Of a stretch of 64,000 nucleotides of DNA, positions 1 through 11,580 are shown one piece after another (position 1 is the first letter of the stretch; each line of letters begins with the position of its first letter). A program made the translations under genes and the position numbers. The stretch covers positions 34,107-98,106 of the forward strand of contig CAYTIA010000002.1 of assembly GCA_964437755.1 (NCBI GenBank). The letters are read 5' to 3'. Origin of the DNA: an uncultured Pseudomonadales bacterium (lineage in GTDB: Bacteria > Patescibacteriota > Microgenomatia > UBA1400 > PJMF01). The notes below the pieces were generated by a model. That model searched no databases. It saw only the letters and a list, made by a program, of their open reading frames with translations, and had not been told where the DNA came from.

Positions 1-351
1 GAATATGTTCAATTTACGATCGTTTTGTTGTAGCATTTGAACAAGACGCTGGAATCATTAGATATTATCACCCCACCGCTATTTCAGGTACAAGAGTACT
101 TCTCCAGATCAGACAAGAGGAAAATTGGTAAAGTGTCGGCTTCTTCAGCCCCCATTTCGTTAGTAAGACCATACAAAATACCCGAAAAATAGAGTTAAAG
201 GCTTATGAATTATCATTAATGAGTTGCTTTCGGGTCAGGTCATTGTCACTTTGTTAGGTTAATATTTAGCTATACATTGAAGCATTAATAACTGTCCTTA
301 GCGTTCTGCGATAATAAATTACCAGGCTTTGCAAGAATAATTCTGTAATCA

Positions 352-379
352 TGCAAGAATATCTTAATCTATTCTTGCA
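352..379. repeat. Perfect 10-bp inverted repeat TGCAAGAATA / TATTCTTGCA with 8-nt spacer, plus a third direct copy at 329-339
   Basis: Read directly: ...tTTGCAAGAATAattctgtaatcaTGCAAGAATAtcttaatcTATTCTTGCAActc. Lies in a 757-bp ORF-poor region. Confidence 0.5.
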
Positions 380-757
380 ACTCAATAAGAAAATTTTAAG
401 TACCGTAATAAAGCGAAGATTAACAACTTGGAATACTTTTCTGCTGTTTTTATTTCGGCTGAGAGGATAATAATTCTTTTCATAGAATCATTAATGCACA
501 CATTAATTATAGGATTGTGATTTTATTGCCATTATTTGCTTGGTCTTTGCTGATGTGATTAAAGTTGGGTGGGGGTAGTTAGTCTAAATATGTGCTTTAA
601 TGACTAAACCTATTGATGTTAACAATGGATAGGTTGTTGACTCTCCCGTTTAGCGGTGAAGCGAGGTTTTGATGAGTGGTTTGGCTCTTATGGAAAATGA
701 GTTAGCTATGAGCAATCATTAGCGTTGTTAACTAATTAATCTTTAACTAACTCCTTC

Positions 758-2904: not shown

Positions 2905-3921
2905 CTATTTCTTTAACTCTGGTTCTTGTTTGCTTTGATCTAATTCCATCTGTAACTCTCTCACTTTTTCTTGTTCAAGCTGATACTTCTTTTCTGCATG
3001 GCGCTTGATAGCCATCACGATAGCTGCAATCAGCACACCTCCAAAGAAGATGGAAAGAATAATTCTAACAGGAATGATCCAGAAGCTAGCAGTATCAACA
3101 ATTACTTGACCAGTATCGCCATAACTGGCGGTTAGTTTAGCAGTATAAAGACCGAATCCCCAAATCTTGTCCCATTTGCCGGCAAAATCTCTACTATTTA
3201 AAGGGAAAACGTTTTGAGGCTCAACCTCAATTGAGTCAGATTTTTGACCAAGCATGTTAAAGATATCGATGCTCATGCGGGGTCGAATGTGAATGTCAGA
3301 TTGATTGCGGATAGTGAAAGAGTAGGGCACAGGGCCAAACTCTTGAAATTTATTGAACTTAAACTCTCTGATGTAGGCTTCCTCATTGATTGGTCCATCA
3401 ACAACTACGTAAAACAAAGTACCCACTCTTTGAGTGACTCCAGTACCAGAACCTTCTGCTTGAGTGATATCATCTGGATTAGCTGGTTCATGTAAAACCA
3501 TGGCATATCGTCCTCCTGGCATAGCGTCCTCAGGAATCTCGATTACCACTGCCATCTCTGCTGTTTCTTTTGGAGCAAGAGTATGCTTGTTAGGAACGAT
3601 AGTCATCCAGTGAGCCAAGCTCCAGCGGTTGGTAACACTTTCCTGTACAGGAATTGGGGTTCTGCCGTCTTCCTTGACAATAAAATCTAGAGCGTAAGAA
3701 CGCAGGGTCATGGTTTTATTAGTTGCGTTGCGGATACGAACGGTGGTCTGGATTGTTTCTCCTGGCGCGGCGCGAAGCTGGCCCTCATCACCAGCTCTTG
3801 GTGGCATAACTACCAGTGAAACGGCATCTGCTACATTACTTGTTTGCGCTTTTGCAGGTTTGATTCTGGCAATCGCAATCAACGAAAGTACAATAAAAAA
3901 GGCAAGAAGTGTTTTTTTCAT
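2905..3921 (-). CDS. Cell-surface protein: signal peptide plus C-terminal TM anchor, architecture resembling DUF916/DUF3324 (WxL-locus) surface proteins
   Basis: 338 aa. Signal peptide MKKTLLAFFIVLSLIAIARIKPAKAQ. Single C-terminal TM (IILSIFFGGVLIAAIVMAI) followed by a charged tail. Paralogous in architecture to 5530..6576. Confidence 0.5.
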   Translation of the reverse strand: MKKTLLAFFIVLSLIAIARIKPAKAQTSNVADAVSLVVMPPRAGDEGQLRAAPGETIQTTVRIRNATNKTMTLRSYALDFIVKEDGRTPIPVQESVTNRWSLAHWMTIVPNKHTLAPKETAEMAVVIEIPEDAMPGGRYAMVLHEPANPDDITQAEGSGTGVTQRVGTLFYVVVDGPINEEAYIREFKFNKFQEFGPVPYSFTIRNQSDIHIRPRMSIDIFNMLGQKSDSIEVEPQNVFPLNSRDFAGKWDKIWGFGLYTAKLTASYGDTGQVIVDTASFWIIPVRIILSIFFGGVLIAAIVMAIKRHAEKKYQLEQEKVRELQMELDQSKQEPELKK

Positions 3922-3949
3922 GAGCAGGCTTGTATTTTTTGTTTGTTAA

Positions 3950-5407
3950 TTAAAAAGTAGCTGTAGCTGTATAAGTAATATAGTTGTAGTAGTCACCGGC
4001 GGCGGTTAGGGCATCGGCGATGATTCTGTAACAGGCATAAATACTGTCGCTATTGGTTGGAGTACTTGGCCCAAACACATCAACGGGATCTTGTGCTGAT
4101 TCAAAATCAGCAAAGTGTCTGGCCACGAAAGTTCCGCCAACATTGTATTCAAAAGCAGGATTATCGCTGTCAATGTTTTCGATTGAGTAACCAAAACCAG
4201 TTTCTGTTTCGACGGTCCAATCTTGTTCTACGGTATGAGACATGCTGGCTACATTCGCATCCCATATACACTCAAAAGCATCAACTCCAGCGTTATAAGT
4301 ATCGCCGGCGCAGACTTCACCATTTCTACCAAGTTGATCATTGGCAATGGCAGTAACGACGGCACCGCTTAGAGCATTAGTGGTAACTTTTAGTTCTTGA
4401 GATCCATATTTGAAATCACCGGTGTTAATTTCCCCAAAAGGAACGCTGCTGCCGGTGGTAGTAATATCGGTTGTTTCACCGCATCTGGTTGCTCCGGCGG
4501 TTTCACCAATAATTTCAAAAGTGAGTGAGGGAACAACAGTAGCGCTGACGCGAACTGCTTCAATGGCGCCAATTTTTACAGTAGTTGAGTCAATTACTGC
4601 GTTGTCAGAAGTTCTTACATTGCGAACAACAACCTCATAAGTATCAGCAATACCTGTAATATGACCTGCCGCTGGGGCTGGATTGATGATGGTAGGAATA
4701 CCGATGGTGATGGTTCCACCGGTGCCACCCGTTGTGTAAGGGCAAGTATAAACGTGCCAATAACCCGTGGGAAGAATGCCTCCAGTTTGACCAGCAGAAG
4801 CAGTTGGGGTGCCAAAGGTATGAGAACCAGTTTTTTCGCAGGATACGGTTGGAGAGCCAGTACCAAAATCAAAATAAGCCTGATCAGGGATGCCATCTGC
4901 ACTAGTAGCACTAGTGCCAGTTGCTGGTACCAATACTTGAAAGTAACCTGCTGTAACATCTGTATTTGTGTCAAAAACTACCTCCAGAGCACTTGTTTCA
5001 GCAAGATAAAAAGTTTCATTGGTGGTAGCAATAGCAGAATCAATGGCAATGGTGTTAGTATCAACAACGTCAGCAATGGTTCTTGCTCCTGAAGTAGTAA
5101 AGGTTAGAGAGTCAGTAACTTTTAATGCATCTGTAATTTCTGTGTTGAGATTAACTGTGTAATCAGTAATTGCGGGTGAGTCAATAACTATATCCATAAT
5201 GGTATCTGACCCCGGAGTACCACTAACTCGTCCTCGATAAGAAACCCTTGAATTGCTCATTGTAACTGATACAGAAGTAAGGTTTGCTGCCTGTGGCTTG
5301 TTAAGATAGGCTAGCCAGGTTAATCCTACAACTAATAGAGCAAGTGATACGAGGCGAAAATAGAGGGGTTTGACTTCAGTCATGATGTTGTTAGTTAAAT
5401 AAAACAA
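3950..5407 (-). CDS. Secreted Thr/Gly/Ser-rich surface protein (hypothetical)
   Basis: 485 aa. N-terminal TM/signal (LVSLALLVVGLTWLAY). Very Thr/Gly/Ala/Ser-rich mature region with scattered Cys pairs. No recognisable catalytic motifs. Confidence 0.5.
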   Translation of the reverse strand: MFYLTNNIMTEVKPLYFRLVSLALLVVGLTWLAYLNKPQAANLTSVSVTMSNSRVSYRGRVSGTPGSDTIMDIVIDSPAITDYTVNLNTEITDALKVTDSLTFTTSGARTIADVVDTNTIAIDSAIATTNETFYLAETSALEVVFDTNTDVTAGYFQVLVPATGTSATSADGIPDQAYFDFGTGSPTVSCEKTGSHTFGTPTASAGQTGGILPTGYWHVYTCPYTTGGTGGTITIGIPTIINPAPAAGHITGIADTYEVVVRNVRTSDNAVIDSTTVKIGAIEAVRVSATVVPSLTFEIIGETAGATRCGETTDITTTGSSVPFGEINTGDFKYGSQELKVTTNALSGAVVTAIANDQLGRNGEVCAGDTYNAGVDAFECIWDANVASMSHTVEQDWTVETETGFGYSIENIDSDNPAFEYNVGGTFVARHFADFESAQDPVDVFGPSTPTNSDSIYACYRIIADALTAAGDYYNYITYTATATF

Positions 5408-5529
5408 ACGATAATTTTAAAGCTCTTTTATAAGCTACTTGATAGGGCAATCCAACCCTAAATACACTTAAGTACTACTACGAATATTATTAACAGGATC
5501 TTTTGATAAGTGCAAGAGATAATTTGTAT

Positions 5530-6576
5530 TTACCTTACTCTTTTTACGATCTGCTTCCAACCCCAGTGCATCATCCAGCCCAAACCAACTAAAACCACAA
5601 GTGAAAACGGCAGAGCAATTATGCTTTTGGTTTGGGTCTGTTCACCAACCACAAAATGAGCTTCATAGAGGCCAATCATCAACGGAGGTTTGTAATGAAA
5701 CTGAGTAAAAAGTGTGTCTACTTTTTCTGGATCAAGTAAGCCCTCGGCATCTAACATATCAGAATTTAGTTTGGTACCTCTTACCATTCTTGTGGAGTTG
5801 GCCAAAACAAAATCAGGATAAAAAATGTACTCAACAATGCTTTGTTTGAAAATATTTTTAATGGTGGCGGAACCTTGAATCAGGGTGGCGGTATTGCCGG
5901 TGTTTTCTGCTAAAACATCAAAGCGAATGCCGGTAAAACTGTCAATAAACAGTGGCATGTTGAGATTGGCAATACCGAGTTTTCCCTGATTGGACTCGCT
6001 TTCACCTATGTAGACGATTAAGTTGCTAACGACGGTTCCTGCGACTTGGCTTGAGCTATTATCCTGATTGCTGTCGGCGTTTTCACTAGAAGCTAAACTA
6101 CGAGCATTGACCATTATTGCCAGAGGGTACTCTTTTTCTGATGCTACATCATTAACATCAATTTGTAAGCTGATACTGTGATTTTTTCCTGGTTGTAAAA
6201 CAAATGACTCTCCAAACTGTAAGTCTGGGTTTGCAGTTCGATTAAAGATTTTTCCAGGCTGAAGTACTGGTTGTCCTGTTTTTCCATCAGCCTTAAAGTC
6301 AGTAATGTTGACCGAAATTTCAAGTGGTTCTTTGCCATGGTTTTTAACAACCAAAGTATGCTTGAGTTTTTCTGATGGTTTAACAGCTACATAAGCAACC
6401 GGTGGATGAACTGAGAGCGAAAGTGCAGCACTATTAGGAACAACAACCTCTTCATCTTGGTTTTGATTCGTTGTTTGCTGAGCATTGACTTGAGGAAAAG
6501 ATTGCTGGCTAAAAAGAATAATAAGCCCCACAACAAAAGTTGTAGCGATAGTATTAATAAACTTTCTTTTCTTCAT
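5530..6576 (-). CDS. Cell-surface protein, paralog of 2905..3921 (signal peptide plus C-terminal TM anchor)
   Basis: 348 aa. Signal peptide MKKRKFINTIATTFVVGLIILFS. C-terminal hydrophobic segment LPFSLVVLVGLGWMMHW followed by basic tail KQIVKRVR. Ig-like N-terminal region similar in pattern to 2905..3921. Confidence 0.5.
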   Translation of the reverse strand: MKKRKFINTIATTFVVGLIILFSQQSFPQVNAQQTTNQNQDEEVVVPNSAALSLSVHPPVAYVAVKPSEKLKHTLVVKNHGKEPLEISVNITDFKADGKTGQPVLQPGKIFNRTANPDLQFGESFVLQPGKNHSISLQIDVNDVASEKEYPLAIMVNARSLASSENADSNQDNSSSQVAGTVVSNLIVYIGESESNQGKLGIANLNMPLFIDSFTGIRFDVLAENTGNTATLIQGSATIKNIFKQSIVEYIFYPDFVLANSTRMVRGTKLNSDMLDAEGLLDPEKVDTLFTQFHYKPPLMIGLYEAHFVVGEQTQTKSIIALPFSLVVLVGLGWMMHWGWKQIVKRVR

Positions 6577-6579
6577 ATA

Positions 6580-7380
6580 TTAATAGCCTGGAACGGCAAT
6601 ATAAATAATTCCAGTTTGATATCGACCTGAAGTTTGTGAGGCATCAACCCCAGCCTTATAGGTGATGAGTGCTTGTTCATTTCTAGCGATAACGTCACTA
6701 TTCATTACAACTTGCATTGTTCCTCCTTGACTTGCATCAGCAAATGGGCGAAAACACTCATCATCGCTACTACAGTCCAGGTTACCTGCAGCAGTAAAAT
6801 CATCGCTAACAGTATTTCCTTGAGCGTTATAACCAAAGCCGGCGACAGACTCATTGATCCAGGGTTTGGCTAGATTGACAGCACAGGTGCCCGAGTCGCA
6901 CTCGGTGTCGGGAATCCAGTCAAGTCCTCCGTGATGAGCTAAGCGATGCTGTTCATAAGCATAAACAGTGTATCCGCCAGCACCGCGAGTACTAATGGTT
7001 AAAGTATTTTGAGCACTAGCATGAATTCCTGGTACTAAGTATCCCAATTCCAAATCTGTGTCAGAAATAGAAAAGGCAAAATCTCCAATTTGATAGATAT
7101 ATTGAAAACCGGCTCCAACAAAGTATGTGCTGCCACCGGCTCCATAATCTCCATAAGGGCCAGCGGCGGTTTGTCCTAAAGTGTAGCTTACATTATATAA
7201 GGAGCCTTCTCGTTTTCCTGCTCCCATATTAAAGTTGCCAAACTGAATTACATAAGTTGCGCTTTCAAGGCGCTCGGCTAGTGAGGTTGGAGGTGAGAGT
7301 AGAGCTCCAACTATTAACAATAAGAAAAATGTTAAAAAAATAGTGGCTCGTGACCACTGATGAACTAGCATTCTTCTCAT
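6580..7380 (-). CDS. Secreted Cys-rich protein (hypothetical)
   Basis: ORF 6580..7410. The likely true start is Met at 7380 (MRRMLVHQWSRATIFLTFFLLLIVGALL signal). That start forms an ATGA start/stop overlap with the upstream gene. Gly/Tyr-rich, with several Cys pairs (CDSGTC, CSSDDEC). Confidence 0.5.
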   Translation of the reverse strand: MRRMLVHQWSRATIFLTFFLLLIVGALLSPPTSLAERLESATYVIQFGNFNMGAGKREGSLYNVSYTLGQTAAGPYGDYGAGGSTYFVGAGFQYIYQIGDFAFSISDTDLELGYLVPGIHASAQNTLTISTRGAGGYTVYAYEQHRLAHHGGLDWIPDTECDSGTCAVNLAKPWINESVAGFGYNAQGNTVSDDFTAAGNLDCSSDDECFRPFADASQGGTMQVVMNSDVIARNEQALITYKAGVDASQTSGRYQTGIIYIAVPGY

Positions 7381-8138
7381 TGAGTGTTGCTTTTTTGTTT
7401 TGACAGCCATTCTTTTAGTTTCTCCAGTTCGACTCTAATAAGCATTAACTGCCCTTTTACTGCATCATGGTTTTGCGGAAACTGCATCATTTGGATGGTT
7501 TGATCTAACTTTGGTTGTAAAAATCCAAACAAAAATCCATCAAAATATTTTAGCCAATCCCAAGTGGTGTTTTCTGCATGATTTAGCTCATCTTCCTTTT
7601 GATCCAAAAAAATCTTGTAGCTATGAACCTCATTGTGTTCAATTTCTACCAAAGTTTGTTTTTCTTTGGCTTGCTCATATTGATACTTAGCAAATAAAAA
7701 GAAAACCATTATCAGAGGAATGCTGATTAAATTTGAAAAATCAGCCTTGGAGCTGACTGCTGGATTCAGGGCATAGAAAAATAACAGGGTAAGCAGGGTG
7801 GTGGCGATTGAGGTCCAGCGTTCCATTGTCATCGATACAAAAAATAGATAAACAAATACCAGCGGAAAAAAGATTGAGGATATGCCTCCAGTTGCCCCGA
7901 TCAAGATTAAAAAAGCAAAGGTGACTAGCACCATCTCGTCAACGGCGGTGGTGGGTAAAATTTCCCAGACAGCGGCTTCATTAAGTTTTTTTAAAATGAA
8001 ATAGAGAACAAAACAGGCGCCAAAAGCTTGGAGCGAGTATTGAGCAAGTGAGGGAAATGACAGCCAAAGATAAGCGACCACAATTGAGACCGATAATGCG
8101 AGAGATTGGGCAAGAACTTTTCTAACTTGGTTCGTCAT
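7377..8138 (-). CDS. Polytopic membrane protein (hypothetical)
   Basis: 253 aa with about 5 predicted TM helices and a charged C-terminal tail. First gene of the minus-strand surface-protein operon. Stop TGA overlaps the next start (ATGA). Confidence 0.5.
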   Translation of the reverse strand: MTNQVRKVLAQSLALSVSIVVAYLWLSFPSLAQYSLQAFGACFVLYFILKKLNEAAVWEILPTTAVDEMVLVTFAFLILIGATGGISSIFFPLVFVYLFFVSMTMERWTSIATTLLTLLFFYALNPAVSSKADFSNLISIPLIMVFFLFAKYQYEQAKEKQTLVEIEHNEVHSYKIFLDQKEDELNHAENTTWDWLKYFDGFLFGFLQPKLDQTIQMMQFPQNHDAVKGQLMLIRVELEKLKEWLSKQKSNTQ

Positions 8139-8280
8139 GGGCAGCAGCTGTTGATATAAAAATATAGTAGGATTATATCAACTATAACCTAGTTGAGTTG
8201 TGTAGACAATTGGAGGTCGCTGTTTTTTATAATTACTTGCGTGATACAATCATATACTCGGAGAAATTATTTTTTTATGT

Positions 8281-10940: not shown

Positions 10941-11189
10941 ATGCAAAAAACAATGTCAATTACTAGTCAAGGTCAAATAACTATTCCTCTTGAGATTCGT
11001 CAAGCTCTTAATATTACTCAAGCCACAAAAGCTTTAGTGCAGTTAGATGGTGAAAAAATTGTGATAACACCACGACTAAGTTTTGAACAACTTGCTGGTA
11101 GCTTAGCCTCGAATATTAAGTTGTCAGATGACCAATTAAGAAAAGCAAGAAGATCATTTGAAAGTGATTGGGCTAAAGATGAAAAATGA
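10941..11189 (+). CDS. AbrB/MazE (SpoVT-AbrB fold) antitoxin, VapB-like
   Basis: 82 aa. GQITIPLEIRQALNI..DGEKIVITP matches the swapped-hairpin AbrB/MazE DNA-binding motif. 11-nt overlap with the downstream PIN gene. Confidence 0.75.
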   Translation: MQKTMSITSQGQITIPLEIRQALNITQATKALVQLDGEKIVITPRLSFEQLAGSLASNIKLSDDQLRKARRSFESDWAKDEK

Positions 11190-11580
11190 TAATCTTTTTT
11201 TTCTGGATACAAATGTGATTATTCGTTTTTTGGTAAAGGATCACATTGAGCATTTTGAACAAGCCAAAATTTGGTTTAACCAAGCAAAAGAAGGGAAGAT
11301 AAAAATGATAATAGTACCGATAGTGGTGGCTGAATGTTGTTATCTACTTGAATCATTTTATAAAGTTCCTAAAGAATCTATTGCCCAAAAGATGCAAGTT
11401 TTGTTAAGTCAGCGCTGGATCCAAGTTGAGAATAGAAAAGAAATAAATAACCTCTGGCAGCATTATCTTAAAGGATTGCATTTTGTGGATAGTTTTTTAT
11501 TGAGTTCTTCTCTTATTAATCAAGCAAAGGTGCTGAGTTTTGATAAAAAGATTGTAAAACATTGTTTACAGCTGAATTGA
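11179..11580 (+). CDS. vapC: PIN-domain ribonuclease toxin (VapC)
   Basis: ORF track starts at TTG 11158; the likely start is ATG 11179 (MKNDNLFFLDTNVII). The four PIN acidic residues are present (LDTNV, VAEC, FVDSF, SFDKK). Confidence 0.8.
   Translation: MKNDNLFFLDTNVIIRFLVKDHIEHFEQAKIWFNQAKEGKIKMIIVPIVVAECCYLLESFYKVPKESIAQKMQVLLSQRWIQVENRKEINNLWQHYLKGLHFVDSFLLSSSLINQAKVLSFDKKIVKHCLQLN

Follow-up and report, generated by a model that had tools for sequence, protein, structure and literature searches.

We report a cassette of six minus-strand genes, g5 to g0, within a stretch of 64,000 nucleotides (the window) which probably represents a divergent form, of Microgenomatia type, of the Pam pilus of CPR bacteria. 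This pilus has been described as a thin filament on the cell surface that membrane-anchored chaperones are thought to assemble without an outer-membrane machine, and PamA homologs were reported in Microgenomatia in the same work (10.64898/2026.03.03.709456). Most likely, the cassette encodes a shaft pilin and a tip-like pilin, a pair of anchored chaperone-like proteins and a pair of accessory membrane proteins. Its secreted proteins show no similarity to WxL domains, their C-terminal domain being that of Pam pilins; therefore, the locus is regarded as a Pam-type pilus operon. The kind is already known, having been described very recently, and our locus adds a member to it. The Pam model itself stems from a single preprint (10.64898/2026.03.03.709456), and the likeness to PamA-E, PamR and PamT of Candidatus Mycosynbacter amalyticus was judged from published descriptions and NCBIfam models.

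In the direction of transcription, the cassette begins with g5 (7377-8138, 253 aa), a polytopic membrane protein according to the ORF list and hydropathy. It is followed by g4 (6580-7410, 276 aa, or 266 aa with a start at the second Met at 7380), a candidate PamT-like minor or tip pilin, g3 (5530-6576, 348 aa), an anchored chaperone-like protein, and g2 (3950-5383, 477 aa), the candidate for the major pilin. The second anchored chaperone-like protein, g1 (2905-3921, 338 aa), is of a WxLIP/PapD-like type, and g0 (758-2845, 695 aa) is a multi-domain membrane protein. For g2 the reading frame extends upstream to a TTG at 5407, which would give 485 aa; the ATG at 5383 is more likely the start, because a 100% identical database protein (P0001) begins there. 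The intergenic distances are -34 nt (g5/g4), 3 nt (g4/g3), 146 nt (g3/g2), 28 nt (g2/g1) and 59 nt (g1/g0). An earlier note on this DNA had proposed a five-gene operon, g5 to g1, with junctions of the ATGA type or of 2-30 nt. Its five ORFs are all present where it had placed them and are genuine genes rather than chance ORFs, as homologs of each are numerous and dozens of genomes keep the set in synteny. However, the conserved unit consists of six genes including g0, the g3/g2 gap of 146 nt lies outside the proposed range, and the g5/g4 junction becomes an ATGA overlap only if g4 starts at 7380.

Two putative signals of transcription were located on the minus strand. A consensus scan gave a promoter-like site (TTGTCT-17-TATAGT, 8181-8209) in the divergent intergenic region between leuS and g5, about 45 nt upstream of g5, which is weak evidence since the number of such sites in this region does not exceed the shuffled expectation. 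The scan also gave an intrinsic-terminator-like hairpin in the g1/g0 gap (2851-2879), with a 12-bp stem followed by a U-tract. This hairpin is kept with compensatory stem changes in the related loci L001-L003, L005-L007 and L010 and is not evident in loci more distant than these.

Of 79 related loci from Patescibacteria, 47 have exactly the order leuS / g5 g4 g3 g2 g1 g0, and the remainder are, with few exceptions, truncated at contig ends. The gene g5 is the first of the cassette in 61 of the 79 loci, while g0 is present in 69 and invariably the last. The co-occurrence across genomes that the earlier note had put forward as a check is thus strict, and this synteny of six genes points to one machine. 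Among the database matches, homologs of the cassette belong exclusively to Patescibacteria of the Microgenomatia type; the label 'TM6' of a single homolog is wrong. The CPR origin suspected earlier, together with a role at the surface or in host attachment, was rated plausible.

The secreted proteins g2 and g4 have a C-terminal domain of approximately 160 aa in common (hhalign E=1.3e-24). The g4 protein of the window matches the NCBIfam models NF058579 (PamT, E=3.9e-5) and NF058581 (Pam_pilin_C, E=3.3e-4). In its family, 31 of 33 members match Pam_pilin_C (best 1e-8) and 20 of 33 match PamT (best 1.2e-10). Within the g2 family, 22 of 35 members match NF058581, the "Pam pilus system pilin subunit" (best 7.6e-8), and the relatives span the whole model (positions 2-148); the g2 protein of the window itself gave no match to this model at E<=0.1. 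These matches are significant, yet all lie under the curated cut-offs of NCBI, with about 29-35 bits at best against 55, and far under the cut-off of 240 in the case of PamT.

The g2 protein consists of a signal peptide (1-32), a beta-sandwich N-terminal region (about 36-273), a highly conserved linker strand with alternating hydrophobic pattern (275-289) and the C-terminal Pam-pilin domain (about 296-477), whose last residue is an invariant Phe. The AF2 model (pLDDT 89.8) is all-beta apart from two short helices in the N-terminal sandwich region, and this architecture matches the published description of PamA. Conservation peaks at the C-terminal strand, the linker, one further strand of the C-domain and the N-terminal strand of the mature protein; the C-terminal strand is strictly conserved, carrying a Gly at -14 and ending in an aromatic residue. 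In Pam pilins the donated linker and its binding site are the most conserved parts, and two pairs of Cys are present in PamA and three in PamB (10.64898/2026.03.03.709456). Six Cys residues of g2 are invariant across the alignment of 35 sequences. In g4, an N-terminal segment precedes the Pam pilin C-terminal domain, and the signal peptide shows an AxA site by inspection. It contains only four Cys, two of them invariant, so that its former description as Cys-rich was generous; that of g2 as Thr-rich is apt (16% Thr in the mature protein). With 1466 clusters at 50% identity, g2 belongs to a large family. We consider g2 a candidate for the major (shaft) pilin and g4 a candidate for a PamT-like tip or minor subunit. 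No homology to Pap/Fim pilins was seen at the sequence level for either protein.

The anchored proteins g1 and g3 are full-length paralogs as proposed before, a relation that emerges at the profile level (hhalign E=2.3e-33 over 271 columns), direct BLASTP giving E=3e-4 over 60 aa. In g1, a signal peptide is followed by domain 1 (36-174), domain 2 (182-282), a TM helix from residue 285 and a charged cytoplasmic tail. The AF2 model (pLDDT 83.5) comprises two beta-sandwich domains and the TM helix, which is the architecture described for PamC/PamD. The layout of g3 is similar, with a signal peptide, two Ig-like domains, a C-terminal TM helix at 318-336 and a short basic tail, and it evolves faster than g1 (mean conservation 0.40 vs 0.56). 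Both are homologous to Firmicutes WxLIP, that is DUF916/DUF3324 proteins, a kinship for which the earlier note had suggested profile searches. Pfam PF06030 (WxLIP_PGBD) is matched by 24 of 35 members of the g1 family (best E=4.8e-9). With an alignment of genuine WxLIPs encoded at plasmid loci as the reference, hhalign gave E=3e-11 for g1 over 243 columns covering both domains and E=2.2e-9 for g3, whereas negative controls remained above 0.005. This kinship of WxLIP with Pam chaperones is absent from the main text of the Pam preprint (Troman et al. 2026, 10.64898/2026.03.03.709456). The best PDB matches of the g1 model in Foldseek are WxLIP structures of E. faecium (9i1y_A, 2.2e-13; 9i25_C, 5.4e-13), followed by RbmA, CfaA, DraB, Caf1M, FimC and SafB; as modelled, g1 thus resembles chaperones of the PapD/FimC/CfaA type in fold.

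The accessory membrane proteins are g5 and g0. For g5, hydropathy indicates about 4-5 TM segments and a helical, charged, cytoplasmic C-terminal tail. It has no Pfam family and no PDB relative, and its 49 homologs, all of 225-350 aa, have neither a Pfam domain nor an informative name; g5 is an orphan family. One homolog carries the JGI label 'FtsW', which no Pfam match backs. The g0 protein is composed of a signal peptide, two Big_13 Ig-like domains, a Pro-rich linker, a TM segment, an SdrD_B-like sandwich, two further TM segments and a C-terminal CarboxypepD_reg domain. Pfam detects Big_13 in 26 of 26 and CarboxypepD_reg in 23 of 26 family members, and g0 also has PDB profile matches. It is a candidate for a base, anchor or adhesin.

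If the cryo-EM and AlphaFold results for Ca. Mycosynbacter amalyticus are taken as a guide, assembly might proceed as follows. The incomplete Ig-like C-domain of an exported pilin would be capped on the outside of the cytoplasmic membrane by a strand of an anchored chaperone, for which the last strand of domain 1 of g1 is a candidate (G167-x-L169-x-Y171..V174; conserved, alternating-hydrophobic and preceded by a flexible loop). The conserved linker strand of the following pilin, residues 275-289 of g2, would then take the place of this strand. A thin linear filament with g4 at its tip may result, growing from the base without usher, ATPase or sortase and probably tethered by one of the anchored paralogs or by g0. 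Such a filament would probably serve to reach a host cell and to attach to it.

The earlier note had seen here a resemblance to Firmicutes WxL loci which build peptidoglycan-associated complexes. The kinship of the anchors with WxLIP bears this out, while the secreted partners do not: neither the window proteins nor the 35 and 33 members of the g2 and g4 families have a Pfam WxL match, the hhalign values against real WxL domains (E=0.31 for the g2 C-domain, E=0.056 for the g4 family) equal those of negative controls, and no WxL chain is among the best 50-60 fold matches listed. A Pam pilus fits better than such a complex, as g2 and g4 carry the Pam pilin C-terminal domain. It is unlikely that g1 and g3 merely hold g2 and g4 at the surface by strand insertion, without polymerisation, although their homology to WxLIP is genuine, WxLIP has been proposed to bind its partner by insertion of a beta-hairpin strand (9i25 is a crystal structure of WxLIP with a long WxL protein), the gene content is similar, with one or two anchored proteins and two secreted ones (one small, one large), and filament formation by g2 is a prediction. 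Besides the domain of g2 and g4, the conserved inter-domain linker strand of g2, which fits a self-polymerising subunit, and the lack of an LPXTG protein or sortase, present in many of the WxL loci compared, argue against it.

Polymerising Pam-like pilins could also be combined with another function of g1 and g3, namely as tethers or terminators (PamR/RbmA-like) or wall-binding anchors, with strand exchange occurring on its own or under catalysis by g0 or g5. In favour of this, RbmA ranks fourth among the fold matches of g1 (E=1.3e-10), PamR has the same overall layout, in which two Ig/FnIII domains precede a C-terminal TM helix (10.64898/2026.03.03.709456), the cassette has no separate PamR, and g0 and g5 are strictly conserved. 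Nevertheless, we hold this to be quite improbable: the chaperones CfaA, DraB, Caf1M, FimC, SafB and CupB2 of chaperone-usher systems match g1 across both domains (E 1e-8 to 1e-10), the last strand of domain 1 with its flexible loop resembles a G1 donor strand, and two paralogs fit the PamC/PamD pair. That the genes form an unrelated Ig-domain adhesin or S-layer-type cluster, similar to Pam and WxLIP proteins through the common beta-sandwich fold only, is very improbable in view of Pam-model E-values down to 1e-8 to 1e-10 in most family members at full-length model coverage, the WxLIP value of 3e-11 against controls above 0.005, the common architecture of signal peptide, two domains and TM helix, and the six-gene synteny.

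Compared with known systems, the Pam-type cassette shares only generic fold similarity, and no sequence similarity, with TasA and TasA-like fibres, the Sulfolobus 0406 filament and the archaic Csu pilus, from which it differs in operon content and helper proteins. The chaperone-usher pili of Gram-negative bacteria (Pap/Fim, CFA/I, Caf1, Dr/Afa, Saf) have in common with it the two-domain Ig-like chaperone fold of g1, a conserved C-terminal pilin strand and, as we infer, donor-strand complementation and exchange. Unlike these, the system has no outer membrane and no usher (none of the six proteins has a Pfam match to the usher family), its chaperones are membrane-anchored rather than soluble, its pilins possess a sizeable additional region at the N-terminus, and the donor strand of Pam is an inter-domain linker instead of an N-terminal extension. 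With Firmicutes WxL clusters (PMC10599100; PDB 9i1y, 9i25) it shares a monoderm-type envelope, one or two anchored proteins accompanied by two secreted beta-rich proteins (one small, one large), and a proposed partner binding by strand insertion; WxLIP, consisting of PF06030 (DUF916), DUF3324 and a C-terminal TM helix, is homologous to g1 and g3 over both domains. In contrast, no WxL domain is detectable in the secreted partners of the cassette, no LPXTG signal is found in the six proteins and there is no sortase, and descriptions of WxL complexes speak of surface assemblies associated with peptidoglycan rather than of filaments, with WxLIP interpreted as a holder of surface proteins and not as a polymerisation chaperone (Hassan et al. 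2023, PMC10599100).

The closest counterpart is the Pam operon of Ca. Mycosynbacter amalyticus (Saccharimonadia). There, PamA, PamB and PamE stand in place of one large pilin, and a PamR tether is present which is not separately recognisable in our cassette. The cassette adds g5 and g0, both strictly conserved, and is linked to leuS, the Pam operon to ATP-synthase genes; sequence similarity stays under the NCBI curated cut-offs, and for the Microgenomatia branch the filament is a predicted one. Both are CPR-restricted single operons without usher, ATPase or sortase. They encode Sec-exported two-part pilins with paired Cys, in which a conserved linker joins a beta-sandwich N-terminal region to a C-terminal Ig-like domain that NF058581 can detect. 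Each also has a smaller PamT-like subunit and two chaperone-like proteins that combine a signal peptide and a pair of Ig-like domains with a TM helix at the C-terminus.

The cassette consists of six consecutive genes on the minus strand, named here g5 to g0 in the order of their transcription. It begins with the polytopic membrane protein g5 (7377-8138, 253 aa) and the PamT-like g4 (6580-7410, 276 aa), continues with the anchored chaperone-like g3 (5530-6576, 348 aa), the shaft pilin candidate g2 (3950-5407) and the g3 paralog g1 (2905-3921, 338 aa), and after g1 ends with the membrane protein g0 (758-2845, 695 aa). The earlier note had listed the first five minus-strand ORFs, and its coordinates were reproduced exactly. 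Read from a TTG codon g2 has 485 aa; more probably translation begins at the ATG at 5383 and yields 477 aa, as in a database protein of 100% identity. The junctions from g5 to g0 measure -34, 3, 146, 28 and 59 nt; the first becomes an ATGA overlap when g4 is read from its second Met, and the 146-nt gap precedes the shaft pilin gene g2. All five exported proteins show, on reading of the sequence, a hydrophobic N-terminus closing with an AxA-type site, from which mature sizes were computed, and at the C-termini of g1 and g3 a basic or charged tail comes after a hydrophobic helix. The GC content of the region is 38-42%, and the window overall resembles a small CPR genome.

A promoter-like site, weakly supported, is located upstream of g5. 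In the gap between g1 and g0, positions 2851-2879 of the minus strand can form an intrinsic-terminator-like hairpin with a 12-bp stem and a following U-tract. Compensatory changes in this stem were found among close relatives (GGCAATGA/TCATTGCC, GGTAATGG/CCATTACC, GGTCACGGC/GCCGTGACC), and the hairpin is not evident in distant loci. In this subclade the main transcript probably comprises the first five genes, and g0 would be expressed by read-through or on its own. Downstream of g0, window positions 1-757 contain no ORF in any frame. An RNA gene in these 757 nt was rejected, since no Rfam match at E<=1, no tRNA and no tmRNA was detected; the stretch looks more like a regulatory region with repeated boxes. 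It holds four ATTATTGCA(A/T)-type boxes at a spacing of about 21 nt, and in several loci an AT-rich promoter-like stretch follows such boxes. The closest relative, L001 of our synteny survey, matches over 450 nt at 73%, and about 55-130 nt (especially around 304-430) are 75-84% identical in six further loci (L002, L004, L006, L010, L033, L050), the proteins of which are much more divergent than this shared segment. The box array is probably an operator/promoter array of the next gene, beyond the window edge.

For the synteny survey, one genome per species was scanned, which yielded 80 loci; ORFs were called in all of them and compared with the six window proteins and the leucyl-tRNA synthetase LeuRS. 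The pilin was found in 79 loci and was accompanied by g1 in 73, g3 in 71, g4 in 76, g5 in 61, g0 in 69 and leuS in 56 of these. The gene order leuS(-) / g5 g4 g3 g2 g1 g0(+) is invariant and complete in 47 loci, and nearly all remaining loci carry the same gene string, cut at a contig end; three loci contain a further g1-like ORF or have a g1-like protein at the position of g3. The conserved unit therefore comprises six genes, including the 695-aa g0. The operon proposed in the earlier note is borne out by strict co-occurrence in other genomes, and its gene number of five has to be raised by one.

Database searches delivered more than 556 homologs of g2 and 157 of g1, and those with informative names are nearly all from Patescibacteria, Woesebacteria or Pacebacteria. 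At E<=1e-3 the pilin family amounts to about 1,466 clusters at 50% identity. When named homologs and loci are taken together, apart from a few single odd source labels (Pacearchaeota, Vitreimonas), the sources are overwhelmingly Patescibacteria, Woesebacteria, Pacebacteria and Microgenomates, and the cassette is confined to Microgenomatia-type CPR. Occurrence outside the CPR, as suggested by record titles such as 'TM6' and 'Pseudomonadales', was rejected as a labelling problem. The flanking genes of L048, titled 'candidate division TM6 bacterium GW2011_GWF2_28_16', are syntenic with those of Pacebacteria-type loci at 65-87% identity, and the locus has a local GC content of 36%; the 'Vitreimonas'-titled L021 was viewed for cassette order and LeuRS identity only. 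Many Patescibacteria MAG records bear the title 'uncultured Pseudomonadales bacterium', apparently by mislabelling. Taxonomy should not be read from record titles.

The pilus known as Pam was described in Ca. Mycosynbacter amalyticus, a cultured parasitic member of the Saccharimonadia, where cryo-EM of its filaments identified the pilins PamA and PamB, both highly abundant in that organism; the pam operon also encodes PamE, the single-domain tip pilin PamT, the RbmA-like tether PamR (WP_260763282), and PamC (WP_260763277) and PamD (WP_260763284), two PapD/FimC-like chaperones that carry a signal peptide and end in a TM helix (10.64898/2026.03.03.709456). In first family scans, g4 weakly matched the NCBIfam models 'CPR-type pilus protein PamT' and 'Pam pilus system pilin subunit'. 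At the family level, Pam_pilin_C (NF058581) is matched by 22 of 35 g2-family members (best 7.6e-8) and by 31 of 33 g4-family members (best 1e-8; window g4 3.3e-4), and PamT by 20 of the 33 (best 1.2e-10), with g4 residues 26-153 corresponding to PamT model positions 5-127 (E=3.9e-5). Shorter pilin relatives from an exhaustive search span positions 2-148 of the 148 in Pam_pilin_C. The curated NCBIfam cut-offs are 55 bits for Pam_pilin_C and 240 bits for the PamT equivalog; our scores stay below them, at 17.7-29 bits for Pam_pilin_C among the matches listed and 23 bits for g4 against PamT, and the best family E-values (1e-8, 1.2e-10) likewise represent scores under the cut-offs. By these scores, the Microgenomatia pilins are a divergent branch outside the curated Pam family boundary. 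Profile-profile comparison of the families from syntenic loci revealed one domain common to g2 310-475 and g4 116-274 (99.6% probability, E=1.3e-24).

The AF2 model of g2 (pLDDT 89.8) is all-beta. The predicted N-region (36-273) includes two short helices, the linker zone forms a strand at 287-293, and the C-domain covers about 296-477, a layout that agrees with PamA as described in the preprint. The most conserved 15-residue windows of g2 are the C-terminal strand 463-477, the linker 275-289, the C-domain strand 340-354 and the mature N-terminal strand; the linker, EAVRVSATVVPSLTF, ranks second and has an alternating pattern. In Pam pilins, the donated linker and its binding site are the most conserved parts (10.64898/2026.03.03.709456). 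Six Cys of g2 are invariant across the 35-sequence alignment, and g4 has two invariant and two further Cys. As read from the sequences, Gly stands at -14 and the last residue is aromatic in both proteins, which we take to resemble the conserved C-termini of chaperone-usher subunits. Eight pilins of about 395-410 aa (P0358, P0361, P0362, P0364, P0370, P0373, P0376, P0379) lack the first ~110-130 positions of the g2-family profile, a size difference that parallels large PamA and small PamB in the preprint. Two relatives, P0335 (800 aa) and P0246 (688 aa), have large N-terminal additions, and in P0335 the Pam-type C-domain is preceded by a fused FISUMP (Fibrobacter succinogenes major paralogous) domain; these two may be specialised adhesive or tip subunits.

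The two anchored proteins g1 and g3 are barely alike by BLASTP; profile alignment over 271 columns (hhalign E=2.3e-33) makes them clear full-length paralogs. In the AF2 model of g1 (pLDDT 83.5), two beta-sandwich domains (36-174 and 182-282) are followed by a long TM helix. Its best PDB matches are the crystal structures 9i1y (E=2e-13) and 9i25 (E=5e-13) of the WxL-interacting protein (WxLIP) from E. faecium, then RbmA (E=1.3e-10) and the chaperone-usher chaperones CfaA, DraB, Caf1M, FimC, SafB and CupB2. Pfam PF06030 (WxLIP_PGBD, DUF916) is matched by 24 of 35 g1-family members (best 4.8e-9), with window g1 itself at a weak 19.2 bits, below the gathering threshold of 27.3; the Pfam DUF3324 model itself gave no match. 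For direct comparison we compiled ten real WxL loci from plasmids of Enterococcus, Lactococcus, Lactiplantibacillus, Latilactobacillus and Vagococcus, from which 9 WxLIPs and 18 WxL domains were aligned. With the real WxLIPs, the g1 family aligned over 243 columns covering both domains (hhalign E=3e-11) and g3 at E=2.2e-9, with non-significant controls. The profile comparisons of g1 and g3 and the predicted structure of g1 show their homology to WxLIP, and the earlier suggestion that the two anchors are DUF916/DUF3324 relatives holds. In the last strand of g1 domain 1, which follows a low-confidence loop of the model, G167-x-L169-x-Y171 and G176 are invariant and V174 nearly so; by analogy, this strand would lie at the place of the donor G1 strand of PapD-like chaperones.

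The same note had raised the possibility that the secreted proteins are WxL proteins, and this was not borne out. Motifs of the pilin C-domain (VPFGEL, L.V.T..GY.V.A and a terminal AAG.Y...I.Y.A) resemble a WxL domain with Tyr for Trp, and real plasmid WxL proteins do include ITYNL and IDYNI variants. Against the 18 real WxL domains, hhalign gave E=0.31 for the C-domain of g2 and 0.056 for g4, at the level of the controls (0.26-0.64). Neither g2, g4 nor any of their 35 and 33 family members matched Pfam WxL, and no WxL chain is among the fold matches listed; this assignment was rejected. The anchored protein is the only component demonstrably common to WxL clusters and the cassette.

The remaining two proteins are less easily placed. 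In g0, a signal peptide, two Big_13 Ig-like domains, a Pro-rich linker, a TM segment, an SdrD_B-like sandwich, two TM segments and a CarboxypepD_reg domain follow each other, with Big_13 present in 26/26 and the C-terminal CarboxypepD_reg in 23/26 family members. A 'tail fibre-like protein' is reported to be co-localised with pam operons (10.64898/2026.03.03.709456); that it corresponds to g0 may be guessed. For g5 we found no Pfam family and no PDB relative, apart from a weak and probably compositional match to KwaA (E=0.05); its 49 homologs of 225-350 aa have neither a Pfam domain nor an informative name. A DHp-like or sensor-kinase remnant had been considered for g5 from its sequence pattern, and nothing was found in support. 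Elsewhere in the window there is no extra paralog of any cassette gene, including equivalents of PamB, PamE or PamR, and no third g1/g3 paralog that could act as a PamR-like tether. As g1 matches RbmA, g1 or g3 might therefore fill the PamR role, or g0 might do so. No ATP-synthase genes adjoin the locus in the window. Directly after leuS, two overlapping small plus-strand ORFs of 82 aa and 140 aa (10941-11580) resemble, by eye, an AbrB/MazE-type antitoxin and a PIN-type toxin; a lone MazE-like antitoxin has been noted near the M. amalyticus pam operon (10.64898/2026.03.03.709456).

The cassette hence combines two exported subunits sharing a Pam-type C-domain with two anchored WxLIP-like two-domain proteins in six strictly linked genes, and contains no usher, ATPase or sortase. 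The locus probably encodes a Pam-type pilus. Following the Pam and chaperone-usher paradigms, we infer that the anchored proteins would cap the incomplete C-domain of freshly exported subunits at the membrane surface and that the next g2 subunit would then take over each of them with its linker strand. A thin linear filament would result, growing from its base, with g4 inferred at the tip and one of the paralogs g1/g3, or g0, as its tether; it could serve to reach a host cell and attach to it. The main rival, a WxL-like surface complex that does not polymerise, would likewise employ the WxLIP-type anchors. It would have to do so with secreted partners that match Pam_pilin_C and are indistinguishable from controls in the WxL comparison, and we consider it improbable.

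An attached life on other cells is assumed for most CPR/Patescibacteria, and the means of contact are known for a few cultured Saccharibacteria only. A compact, strictly conserved Pam-like cassette is shown here to be widespread in Microgenomatia-type genomes. It would extend a pilus known from one cultured organism to a large uncultured group, with a minimal parts list of a shaft pilin, a tip-like pilin, a pair of anchored chaperone-like proteins and two membrane proteins. The Pam system itself is already known from the 2026 preprint and the NCBIfam models, and PamA homologs in Microgenomatia were flagged there by a language-model search (10.64898/2026.03.03.709456). What appears to be new is the homology of Pam-type chaperones with WxLIP, a link which was apparently not made in the preprint, because its main text contains no mention of WxL, DUF916 or DUF3324 (10.64898/2026.03.03.709456). 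The homology of g1 and g3 to WxLIP joins two literatures, those of Pam and WxL. More tentatively, and less likely than not, Pam chaperones and WxLIP could form one ancient family, and Pam pili and WxL clusters two branches of one usher-less strand-complementation system of monoderm-type bacteria. WxL proteins would then have WxLIP as their PapD-like chaperone or assembly factor, and the Microgenomatia cassette would be a distinct minimal form with g5 and g0 as new dedicated components, e.g. an assembly platform or base anchor. Predictions follow for genetically tractable Enterococcus, Listeria and Lactobacillus, with WxLIP as a donor-strand chaperone; conversely, the Pam 'chaperones' might act as surface holders.

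Among known systems, chaperone-usher pili have an outer-membrane usher (PF00577-type) beside chaperone and pilins, whereas none is encoded here: no usher family was matched by any of the six proteins at E<=1, whether in Pfam or in NCBIfam, and an usher-type pilus was rejected on this basis. To our knowledge, CPR cells have no outer membrane. A sortase-type pilus was likewise rejected, as neither an LPXTG sorting signal nor a pilus-specific sortase occurs in the locus. WxL clusters share the WxLIP component with g1/g3; to their WxL-domain proteins, at least two (one small, one large), neither g2 nor g4 showed a match. In Firmicutes, the clusters compiled here often lie beside a lytic polysaccharide monooxygenase (Enterococcus plasmid loci L081 and L090), a class A sortase (L085) and small LPXTG proteins, whereas the CPR cassette has no lytic polysaccharide monooxygenase, sortase or LPXTG protein. 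With the Pam pilus the cassette shares the pilin C-domain (NF058581), the predicted two-part pilin and a small PamT-like subunit made up mainly of that C-domain. With PamC/PamD as described in the preprint, g1 and g3 share a signal peptide, two beta domains and a TM helix. From the pam operon the Microgenomatia cassette differs by its reduced, minimal set of subunits, by two additional conserved membrane proteins and by its linkage to leuS.
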